From the sequence record OR846380.1: 1,095 nucleotides of DNA; one strand, 5' to 3'. Below are positions 2 to 1,095 of this stretch, in pieces. The first letter of the stretch is position 1, and each line of letters opens with the position of its first letter. The notes below the pieces were generated by a model. That model saw only the letters and a program-made list of their open reading frames with translations, had not been told where the DNA came from and did no database searches. The stretch is from a phage. Both the position numbers and the translations under genes were made by a program.

Positions 2-349
2 TACAGTGACCACCCGTTCGCGCATGGCCGACCGGCGAAGGTGTTTAACCGTCGCGGTGAAAAATCCACGGCCTCCGGTCGCTATCAGCAGCTTTACCTG
101 TTCTGGCCGCATTACCGCAAACAGCTTGCCCTGCCGGATTTCAGTCCGTTGTCACAGGACAGACTCGCCATTCAGTTGATCCGCGAACGCGGTGCGCTGG
201 ATGACATCCGGGCGGGACGCATTGAGCGCGCCATTTCACGCTGTCGCAATATCTGGGCGTCCCTGCCGGGTGCCGGTTACGGTCAGCGTGAGCATTCACT
301 GGAAAAACTGGTCACCGTCTGGCGTACCGCTGGCGGCGTACCGGCTTAA
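2..349 (+). CDS. Phage endolysin, lambda R-family lytic transglycosylase, C-terminal portion (5'-partial; N-terminus lies upstream of the window)
   Basis: Seen in sequence: the frame beginning at position 2 is open from the window edge to TAA at 347-349. The GTG at 41 shown as M in the ORF track is internal, since the frame stays open upstream (YSDHPFAHGRPAK-VFNRR...). From memory, not a database search: the translation ...YSDHP...SGRYQQLYLFWPHYRKQLALPDFSPLSQD...IRERGALDDIRAGRIERAISRCRNIWASLPGAGYGQREH... aligns closely with the C-terminal half of phage lambda R (YSDHP...GAGRYQLLSRWWDAYRKQLGLKDFSPKSQD...IKERGALPMIDRGDIRQAIDRCSNIWASLPGAGYGQFEH), with the conserved blocks in the same order. The catalytic N-terminal region is not in the window. 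Confidence 0.9.
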   Translation, partial: YSDHPFAHGRPAKVFNRRGEKSTASGRYQQLYLFWPHYRKQLALPDFSPLSQDRLAIQLIRERGALDDIRAGRIERAISRCRNIWASLPGAGYGQREHSLEKLVTVWRTAGGVPA

Positions 350-363
350 ACGGAGTAAACACC

Positions 364-789
364 ATGAAGAAATTATCCCTTTCACTGATGCTGAACGTGT
401 CACTGGCGCTGATGCTGGCACTGTCCCTGATTTACCCGCAGAGCGTGGCCGTCAATTTTGTCGCTGCCTGGGCGATTCTGGCGACGGTTATCTGTGTGGT
501 TGCCAGTGGTGTCGGCGTGTATGCCACGGAGTATGTGCTGGAACGCTACGGACGGGAGCTGCCGCCGGAATCGCTGGCCGTGAAGATTGTCACGTCGCTG
601 TTTTTGCAGCCGGTGCCGTGGCGCAGACGGGCGGCGGCTCTGGTGGTGATGGTGGCGACGTTTATCTCGCTGGTTGCCGCCGGGTGGATTTTTACTGCGC
701 TGATTTACCTCGTGGCGTCGGTGTTCTTCCGGCTGATACGTACGGCCTGCCGTCAGCGTTTTGAGGGGCGGGAACTATGTCAAAGCTGA
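364..789 (+). CDS. Small polytopic inner-membrane protein, LysA-like lysis accessory protein (putative lysis-timing factor or antiholin); 141 aa
   Basis: Seen in sequence: ATG at 364 preceded by GGAG at 352-355 (8-nt spacer), TGA at 787-789, only 14 nt after the endolysin stop. Hydrophobicity pattern suggests 4 transmembrane segments: about residues 4-24, 28-53, and a 33-residue hydrophobic stretch (90-122) long enough for a helical hairpin. Basic residues sit at the N-terminus (MKK), in the central loop (ERYGRE...WRRR) and at the C-terminus (RLIRTACRQRFEGR), consistent with an N-in/C-in topology under the positive-inside rule. Established knowledge: P2 carries lysA, a multi-TMD protein affecting lysis timing, at this position between endolysin K and lysB. 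Alternative: a holin placed downstream of the endolysin cannot be excluded from this window. Confidence 0.8.
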   Translation: MKKLSLSLMLNVSLALMLALSLIYPQSVAVNFVAAWAILATVICVVASGVGVYATEYVLERYGRELPPESLAVKIVTSLFLQPVPWRRRAAALVVMVATFISLVAAGWIFTALIYLVASVFFRLIRTACRQRFEGRELCQS

Positions 790-1095
790 TGATTGTGATG
801 GTTGTGTTGTTATCGCTGGCGGTGGCGGCGCTGTTTCTGGTGAAACACAAAAACGCCAGCCTGCGCGCCTCGCTGGACAGGGCGAACAACGTCTCCAGCG
901 GGCAGCAGGCGACCATCACCATGCTGAAAAATCAGCTTCATGTTGCCCTCACCAGGGCAGACAAAAACGAGCTGGCGCAGGTTGCACTGCGTCAGGAACT
1001 GGAAAACGCCGCGAAGCGTGAAGCACAGCGCGAGAAAACCATCACGAGGTTACTCAATGAAAACGAAGATTTTCGCCGCTGGTACGGTGCTGACC
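777..1095 (+). CDS. Rz/LysB-like inner-membrane spanin subunit (i-spanin), 3'-partial; runs off the window end
   Basis: Seen in sequence: ATG at 777-779 preceded by GAGGGG at 763-768; open for 106 codons to the window edge, so absent from the stop-delimited ORF track. Translation: MSKLMIVMVVLLSLAVAALFLVKHKNASLRASLDRANNVSSGQQATITMLKNQLHVALTRADKNELAQVALRQELENAAKREAQREKTITRLLNENEDFRRWYGAD. It has a single N-terminal hydrophobic segment (about residues 4-22, a signal-anchor) followed by a charged, Ala/Gln/Glu/Arg-rich region typical of the periplasmic coiled-coil of Rz-type i-spanins. The start overlaps the upstream gene's last codons by 13 nt. In-frame ATGs also occur at 789 and 798, so the exact start is uncertain. 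Confidence 0.8.
   Translation, partial: MSKLMIVMVVLLSLAVAALFLVKHKNASLRASLDRANNVSSGQQATITMLKNQLHVALTRADKNELAQVALRQELENAAKREAQREKTITRLLNENEDFRRWYGAD
1057..1095 (+). CDS. Probable Rz1/LysC-like outer-membrane lipoprotein spanin (o-spanin), embedded in the +1 frame of the i-spanin gene; only the first 13 codons are in the window
   Basis: Seen in sequence: ATG at 1057-1059 in the +1 frame relative to the i-spanin, preceded by GAGG at 1046-1049 (7-nt spacer). Translation MKTKIFAAGTVLT has a basic n-region followed by the onset of a hydrophobic core, as in a lipoprotein signal peptide. The lipobox and mature Cys would lie beyond the window. Established knowledge: Rz1/LysC genes commonly begin inside the Rz/LysB gene in the +1 frame. 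Confidence is moderate because only 13 codons are visible. Confidence 0.5.
   Translation, partial: MKTKIFAAGTVLT

Follow-up and report, generated by a model that had tools for sequence, protein, structure and literature searches.

The open reading frame (ORF) at positions 364-789 of the 1095-nt stretch of DNA analysed here (hereafter, the window) is the lysA gene of a P2-like (Peduovirus) Escherichia prophage, i.e. an ordinary copy of an already known gene. The published account that has the best support, according to which LysA is a membrane antiholin that delays triggering of the Y holin, is probably correct. The analysis adds little to the biology of this gene, because lysA, its position and its role in timing have belonged to the textbook knowledge of P2 since the 1990s. 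The sole part of the results going beyond the literature that we found is the observation that members of the LysA family occur in two different contexts, either with the Y holin and the endolysin K, or with an unrelated holin and another type of endolysin.

Identification of the lysA gene

The window contains three genes on the + strand, namely the 3' part of the endolysin gene K, lysA, and the 5' part of lysB, which make up part of a P2-like lysis cassette (Table 1). A megablast search against 50,697 phage records returned 82 matches, 75 of which spanned at least 80% of the window, and the nucleotide identity over the whole length was 96.6-97.8% with P2, P2_AC1, fiAA91-ss, Wphi, L-413C and their relatives. 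The lysA locus was also present in 1559 of 5426 complete E. coli genomes, with the best matches at 99.9% identity. Because of the megablast results and of the matches in E. coli genomes, the window can be assigned to a Peduovirus prophage or phage of Escherichia. The ORF is conserved in related prophages, a point named for checking in the original prediction, made from the letters of the DNA.

The protein encoded at 364-789 shows 94% amino acid identity to P2 LysA (AAD03277) over all 141 residues and 96% identity to Wphi LysA, and both alignments are gap-free. Eight substitutions separate P2 LysA from LysA of the window (including G48S, V96M, L120V, K127T, L133F, P138L and G141S), and, as far as can be judged from the sequence, nothing in them seems to point to a functional difference. 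The protein matched PHROG 162 with an E value of 1.2e-68 (positions 1-141 of 141) and NCBIfam NF038378 with 123.8 bits (cut-off 40), with residues 1-134 aligned to profile positions 1-124 of 124; its homologues bear the precomputed Pfam assignment PF28015 'LysA'. A Pfam-A scan (E <= 1), performed with a release that does not contain PF28015, assigned no family, and EI24 appeared below threshold, with 10.4 bits against a cut-off of 32. All the sequence-testable defining features of the P2 LysA family are present, the topology as a prediction, and the functional ones rest on the literature.

The original prediction of a LysA-like protein was therefore borne out by the 94% identity to P2 LysA, by the position between K and lysB and by the timing note in the P2 GenBank record (see below), and it was also correct in its coordinates (from ATG 364 to TGA 787-789), in the length of 141 amino acids and in the residue features. 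It was too strong in considering this the least characterised component, and the one to be under-described if any is, since lysA is already named and catalogued, curated families are available (Pfam PF28015 'LysA', NCBIfam NF038378 and InterPro 'Antiholin LysA-like') and an antiholin role is found in the literature.

The neighbouring genes agree with this assignment. The K fragment matched PHROG 17029 (E 8e-78) and PHROG 90 'endolysin' (4e-49), and the gpK endolysin is annotated at the corresponding position in P2 and Wphi. The lysB fragment, whose start shares 13 nt with the end of lysA, matched TIGR03495 phage_LysB (5e-29) and PHROG 89 (1.8e-36), in agreement with the annotation of P2 and Wphi. 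The coordinates of lysC were transferred from the P2 record (lysC 8202-8492), and its ATG was read from the window. The gene order in the P2 GenBank record is X-Y-K-lysA-lysB-lysC-R-S, the order Y-K-lysA-lysB-lysC is annotated in both P2 and Wphi, and the placement of lysA, after the endolysin gene and overlapping the lysB start, is identical in the two phages. The holin gene Y falls outside the window, and is presumably located upstream, as it is in the near-identical genomes.

Scans of the window for Rfam families, promoters, terminators and tandem repeats gave nothing meaningful. Weak terminator-like stem-loops with T-rich tails were clustered at 804-833, within the region of lysB coding for the signal anchor, and the window held eight terminator-like sites against 1.2 expected from shuffles. 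The stem-loops at 804-833 are most likely a by-product of GC-rich Ala, Leu and Val codons followed by TTT and CTG codons, rather than functional terminators.

Table 1. Features of the 1095-nt window (aa, residues of LysA; AF2, AlphaFold2).
Feature	Position	Strand	Remarks
Endolysin gene K, 3' part (last 115 codons)	2-349	+	Stop TAA 347-349; from ORF list; upstream neighbour of lysA
GGAG Shine-Dalgarno	352-355	+	8 nt upstream of the lysA ATG; read from sequence
lysA CDS (141 aa + TGA)	364-789	+	ATG 364, TGA 787-789; orthologue of the P2 LysA antiholin
Predicted TMD1 (aa 4-24), after cytoplasmic M-K-K	373-435	+	Hydropathy; AF2 helix 2-23
Periplasmic turn Y/P-Q-S-V (aa 25-28), conserved	436-447	+	Alignments, per-segment conservation
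Predicted TMD2 (aa 29-53)	448-522	+	Hydropathy; AF2 helix 28-62
Cytoplasmic loop (aa 54-89), short helix 71-81, W-R-R-R end (nt 619-630)	523-630	+	
Predicted TMD3 (aa 90-106)	631-681	+	Hydropathy, AF2
G107 turn and predicted TMD4 (aa 108-122), motif G-W-I-F-T-A-L-x-Y	682-729	+	Hydropathy, AF2, alignments
Basic cytoplasmic C-terminal tail (aa 123-141), R-Q-R-x-E motif, C139	730-786	+	Hydropathy, conservation
lysB, 5' part (first 106 codons; Rz-like inner-membrane spanin)	777-1095	+	ATG 777-779; continues past the window edge
lysC start (Rz1-like outer-membrane lipoprotein spanin)	1057-1095	+	Within lysB, out of frame; ATG 1057-1059

It should be noted that the labels borne by lysA in databases are inconsistent. 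The description of PHROG 162 is 'endolysin', a name also given to lysA in many RefSeq phage records, so that two 'endolysins' appear in those records. The gene is elsewhere labelled 'holin', 'lysin', 'lysis regulatory protein' or 'hypothetical protein', and NCBI PGAP calls the product 'DNZ54_00345 family protein'. The confusion between lysA and endolysin names has already been pointed out in a passage of PMC11180984. An annotation correction is in order: the gene in question is lysA (antiholin), and not a second 'endolysin' as in PHROG 162 and in many RefSeq and pharokka-style labels, nor just a 'DNZ54_00345 family protein'.

Selection and natural alleles

The frame at 364-789 is coding and does not arise by chance, because it shows third-position bias, a pN/pS of 0.20, and a product that recurs unchanged in public data. 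Third codon positions hold 13 of the 21 differences from P2 and 11 of the 18 from Wphi, and the exact 141-aa sequence is present on 766 public contigs. Among 67 P2-like IMG/VR loci, the mean pN/pS was 0.20 for lysA, 0.20 for lysB and 0.023 for K; lysA is under purifying selection.

Among E. coli alleles, nt 640-660 in TMD3 (aa 93-99, LVVMVAT) are a natural hotspot of in-frame insertions and deletions within a GTGGTGATGGTG-type repeat. The stretch reads LVVT in proteins of 138 aa (one of which is found on 157 contigs), LMVAT in one of 139 aa (93 contigs), LVVVAT in one of 140 aa, LVVMVAT in the 141-aa form of the window, and LVVMVVMVVT in those of 144 aa (one on 377 contigs). As a result of this variation, the spacing between RRR89 and G107 ranges from 14 to 20 residues across the E. 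coli alleles.

Internally deleted lysA alleles (P0092, P0104 and P0116) were observed in genomes of Escherichia and Salmonella. One form, of 126 aa, is without part of the loop; another, of 98 aa, is without TMD2 and the loop; and a third, of 109 aa and found on 38 contigs, is without the loop end and TMD3. Three further alleles (P0102, P0118 and P0134) are frameshifted versions of lysA. The deleted and frameshifted alleles suggest that a non-essential gene is decaying, or being modulated, in resident prophages.

Predicted membrane topology and conserved residues

LysA has a GRAVY of +0.95 and four hydrophobic segments, at about residues 4-24, 29-53, 90-106 and 108-122, in each of which there are 19-residue windows with a summed Hessa apparent free energy of 0 or less. 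Positive charges are located at K2 and K3, at the end of the central loop (W86-R87-R88-R89), and in the tail, where R123, R126, R130, R132 and R136 are accompanied by E134 and E137. Since four membrane passes place all three of these charged regions on the same side of the membrane, an N-in/C-in orientation is expected from the positive-inside rule.

A single-chain AlphaFold2 model, built from a family alignment of 26 sequences (pLDDT 78.4, pTM 0.70), contains helices at residues 2-23, 28-62, 71-81, 86-106 and 109-138, with tight turns at 24-27 and 107-108. The model is therefore made of two helical hairpins joined by a cytoplasmic loop, and its periplasmic portions are turns of 2-4 residues only. 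These data support a predicted architecture of four transmembrane domains (TMDs) with both termini in the cytoplasm, in agreement with the published descriptions.

The original prediction of a strongly hydrophobic protein with four TMDs, N-in/C-in topology and a basic C-terminal tail is thus reproduced in all these points, and four membrane helices are predicted both by hydropathy, combined with charge for the orientation, and by AlphaFold2. The cytoplasmic loop, which had been described as highly basic, is so in its last four residues (WRRR); the description does not hold for the whole loop 54-89, which is only mildly basic, with four acidic and six basic residues.

When the model was compared by Foldseek with BFVD, only uncharacterised small helical phage membrane proteins were retrieved, the best match (E 4e-3) being an uncharacterised Erwinia phage protein, while nothing below E = 3 was found in PDB. 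The family profile had no match among PDB sequences, and no solved structure or fold relative was found. The structure offers no functional lead, because the comparisons with BFVD and PDB return no named relative.

Across the family, the two predicted periplasmic turns and the cytoplasmic tail stand out by their conservation. In the turn between TMD1 and TMD2 (P25-Q-S-x-A29-x-N-F), P25 is invariant and S27 and A29 are kept in at least 90% of the members; in the one between TMD3 and TMD4, G107 is invariant, within the motif G-W-I-F-T-A-L-x-Y115. The residue R88, preceding TMD3, is kept in at least 90% of the members, and F122 is conserved as well. The tail, with its conserved motif R-Q-R-I-E...C139, is among the better conserved segments, and the central loop is the least conserved one. 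A near-invariant cysteine (C139 in the window, nt 778-780) is located 2-4 residues from the C-terminus in a motif L/P-C-x-x in at least 90% of the members, and its predicted location is the cytoplasm.

The conservation of the first turn raises the question of whether TMD1 could be a cleavable or slowly cleaved signal peptide (MKK...SLIYPQSVA|VNF). Mature LysA would then have three TMDs and an N-out/C-in topology, would mimic a class I holin such as Y, and would poison holin oligomers. The sequence MKK followed by about 20 hydrophobic residues, with P25 at -5, S27 at -3 and A29 at -1, conforms to the (-3,-1) pattern of signal peptidase I, and these are the very positions that are invariant (P25) or kept in at least 90% of the family (S27 and A29). 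In addition, the conservation of TMD1 is slightly below that of TMD2-4 (top-residue frequency 0.52 against 0.55-0.59), and a precedent exists in the T4 antiholin RI, for which a cleavable signal peptide is mentioned in a part of PMC8385771. However, the conservation of TMD1 falls little short of that of the other helices, and the gap between TMD1 and TMD2 is of about four residues, so that the site of cleavage would fall in a tight hairpin at the membrane surface. Furthermore, AlphaFold2 packs helix 1 within the bundle (pLDDT 71-84), and the descriptions of LysA in the passages concerned of PMC11413866 and PMC3091744 give four TMDs. A cleaved TMD1 appears improbable on this evidence, and the four-TMD architecture is retained in what follows.

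Distribution of the LysA family

The LysA family has very few members. When 1.84 billion representatives at 50% identity were scanned in full with HMMER, 39 proteins were retrieved, mostly fragments of the P2-type cluster, with fewer than ten full-length diverged members (29-43% identity). A tblastn search against all phage records retrieved 79 records, only four of them below 60% identity, and a scan of one genome per species (185,579 species) gave ten loci, all under Enterobacterales labels except one labelled Vagococcus. The family is confined to Enterobacterales. The exception (L010, NZ_JBQPOM010000032.1, labelled Vagococcus sp. WN89Y) is the lysis and tail region of a typical enterobacterial P2-like prophage, and the assembly bearing this Gram-positive label is probably contaminated or mislabelled.

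Two holin/endolysin contexts

P2-type loci encode the Y holin (PF04550) and the endolysin K. The diverged LysA proteins (about 26-43% identity) are those of Erwinia phage EtG, Enterobacter phage ENT4, prophages of Enterobacter, Citrobacter, Scandinavium, Pantoea, Kluyvera and Kosakonia, the locus L016, and a lambdoid metagenomic contig. In all the examined members of this set, the LysA gene adjoins one for an HP1/phage-21-type two-TMD holin of 67-78 aa (PF16080) and one for a PF00959 lysozyme with a SAR-like hydrophobic N-terminus. These two proteins take the places of Y and K, to which they are not homologous. No similarity was found by BLASTP between the two-TMD holin of ENT4 and P2 Y. In the genome announcement of Midge, a relative of EtG, the lysis proteins are given as a class II holin, a SAR endolysin and two spanins, and the accession lying between the endolysin and the inner-membrane spanin goes unmentioned.

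The replacement could be followed in 11 loci (L003, L004 and L008-L016, at about positions 2287-3004 in loci of 6.4 kb), which belong to P2-like prophages of Enterobacter, Citrobacter, Kosakonia, Pantoea, Kluyvera, Scandinavium and Erwinia. Here, Y and K are replaced by a PF16080 holin of 71-78 aa and a PF00959 lysozyme of 170-171 aa with a SAR-like N-terminus (MSSIVKRCSVAAVLALAALMPDF), and lysA, lysB and lysC are kept. In 10 of the 11 loci, the identity between the P2-type and the HP1-holin type is 57-86% for the products of the flanking genes M, L, X, LysB, LysC, R and V and only 36-40% for LysA, which has diverged further than any other gene retained. L016 is the most distant locus, and every gene there has a lower identity, with LysA at 28%. 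In the HP1-holin set, no genes of the cassette diverge faster than those for LysA and the holin. The pairwise identity of LysA in this set correlates with that of the endolysin (Spearman 0.93), of the holin (0.83) and of LysB (0.56), and the closer tracking of the endolysin and the holin by LysA is to be read only as a hint, because the pairs are phylogenetically non-independent. Such tracking would be compatible with a co-evolution between LysA and the holin side of its cassette.

The lambdoid LysA-family member (30% identity) is located in the late region of the metagenomic contig just mentioned (Logan SRR28817685; L017, positions 1727-3429), outside the P2 architecture. The order of this region is NinG, the Q antiterminator, a PF16080 holin, a phage-21-like SAR lysozyme and Rz with an embedded Rz1. 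After Rz, there is a terminator-like, GC-rich hairpin with a T-run (GGCCTCGCAATGGCGGGGCTTTTTT), and the LysA-like gene is located 137 nt beyond it. Because of the PF16080 contexts, and of this contig in which Rz stands in for LysB, an association with Y or with LysB is not obligatory for the LysA family. The idea that lysA travels together with lysB and lysC, and not with the holin, was considered and rejected, as the lambdoid contig has Rz and not LysB, and LysA tracks the endolysin and the holin better than it tracks LysB.

The occurrence of the family with a class I holin and a soluble endolysin in P2, and with a class II holin and a SAR endolysin elsewhere, is what would be expected if LysA were a generic modulator of lysis timing, i.e. 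a portable, holin-independent delay module rather than a holin-specific antiholin. LysA could alter a property of the energised inner membrane (the proton-motive-force threshold, or lipid packing around the short hairpins) or could act via a host membrane factor, and any holin, pinholin or SAR endolysin depending on the altered property would fire later. The member that follows the spanin gene of a lambdoid Q-holin-lysozyme-Rz cassette points in the same direction, as do the location of the best conserved residues, in the two turns and in the cytoplasmic tail rather than on a TMD face, and the natural length changes of -3 to +3 residues tolerated by TMD3. On the other hand, the divergence of LysA across the boundary between the Y/K and the HP1-holin types, the largest among the retained genes in 10 of 11 loci, and its tracking of both holin and endolysin are as expected from re-adaptation to a new partner. 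Moreover, the Pfam, BFVD and PDB searches connected LysA with no channel or transporter, either by sequence or by fold, and LysA is presented as a holin-interacting antiholin in the relevant parts of PMC11413866, PMC3091744 and PMC11180984. Action independent of the holin is therefore rather unlikely.

A strictly Y-specific binding of LysA would require re-adaptation, because the family also pairs with an unrelated class II holin and with another type of endolysin. A partner-specific antiholin that was re-adapted after a swap of the holin is favoured, because the divergence of LysA is accelerated and because of its published designation. With its very small size and its two unrelated holin/endolysin types, the LysA family provides a clean natural test of holin-specific recognition against a general action.

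Proposed function of LysA

The P2 GenBank record carries the note 'nonessential; affects timing of lysis' for LysA; its entries for Y and K read 'holin; essential for host cell lysis' and 'endolysin; essential', respectively. P2 LysA is described in a passage of PMC11413866 as an antiholin with four transmembrane helices, with credit to To 2013, and in a passage of PMC3091744 as delaying lysis, with credit to Ziermann 1994. An InterPro-derived statement on the interaction between LysA and the holin is relayed in PMC11180984, in the portion dealing with this protein. No documented case of a physical LysA-holin interaction was found in the secondary literature on P2 LysA. Both the non-essential timing phenotype and the designation as an antiholin come from secondary literature and annotation, and not from data on the window. 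The original prediction had attributed a role in lysis timing to genes at this position in P2-like phages, which agrees with the P2 record, and had regarded their mechanism as unsettled; this still applies to the physical mechanism, but not to the role, which in the literature is that of an antiholin.

According to the mechanism proposed here, the translation of LysA would rely on its own GGAG site and would occur late, along with that of Y and K. The protein would insert in the inner membrane as two helical hairpins, leaving the N-terminus, the central loop and the basic tail in the cytoplasm, and would retard the triggering of the Y holin, so that lysis would occur later and more virions would accumulate. 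LysA would be dispensable, in that its loss would shift the timing of lysis and lysis would still occur. The retardation may be due to a direct binding of LysA helices to those of the holin within the bilayer, which would keep the holin from forming hole-nucleating assemblies.

A further reading is that LysA is a second holin or pore former; a holin-like protein in its own right was the alternative suggested in the original prediction. LysA is indeed a small protein of high hydrophobicity with a charged C-terminal tail, its gene lies in a lysis cassette, and in the P2-like record pro483 the gene is labelled 'holin'. However, a kinship with holins did not emerge from the Pfam-A scan, which gave no holin family and no match to LrgA/CidA. 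In addition, a separate holin is already present in every cassette examined, Y is annotated as essential and LysA as non-essential in P2, and LysA delays lysis rather than causing it according to the account in the part of PMC3091744 concerned. A pore-forming LysA is, on these grounds, unsupported and very improbable, more so than either of the two alternatives discussed above, and its antiholin role is kept for the comparison that follows.

Comparison with known systems

The closest known system is P2 itself, with which LysA of the window shares the position between K and lysB, the 13-nt overlap with lysB, the predicted four-TMD N-in/C-in architecture and the 94% identity. The Eganvirus-like and other Enterobacterales LysA proteins, such as EtG gp11 and that of ENT4, are alike in length, in their four hydrophobic segments and in a location overlapping the upstream end of lysB, as well as in the P-Q-S-x-A-x-N-F and G-W-I-F-T-A-L-x-Y turns and in the R-Q-R-I-E...C tail. 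They differ in sequence (26-43% identity) and in the replacement of Y and K by a PF16080 holin and a PF00959 lysozyme.

Lambda S107 and phage 21 S71 are membrane-embedded inhibitors of their cognate holin and set the timing of lysis. These proteins are N-terminally extended isoforms of the holin, produced from the same gene by a dual start, whereas LysA is the product of a separate gene, has four TMDs and shows no sequence similarity to its holin. A description of S107 is included in PMC11413866, in a passage on antiholins. T4 RI, like LysA, is a separately encoded antiholin that delays lysis. The periplasmic domain of RI binds the periplasmic domain of the holin T, and RI responds to superinfection. 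LysA differs from RI in this respect, because it is predicted to have almost no periplasmic residues, these being limited to two turns of 2-4 residues. It is in the outcome, a delayed lysis, that LysA would resemble the other antiholins.
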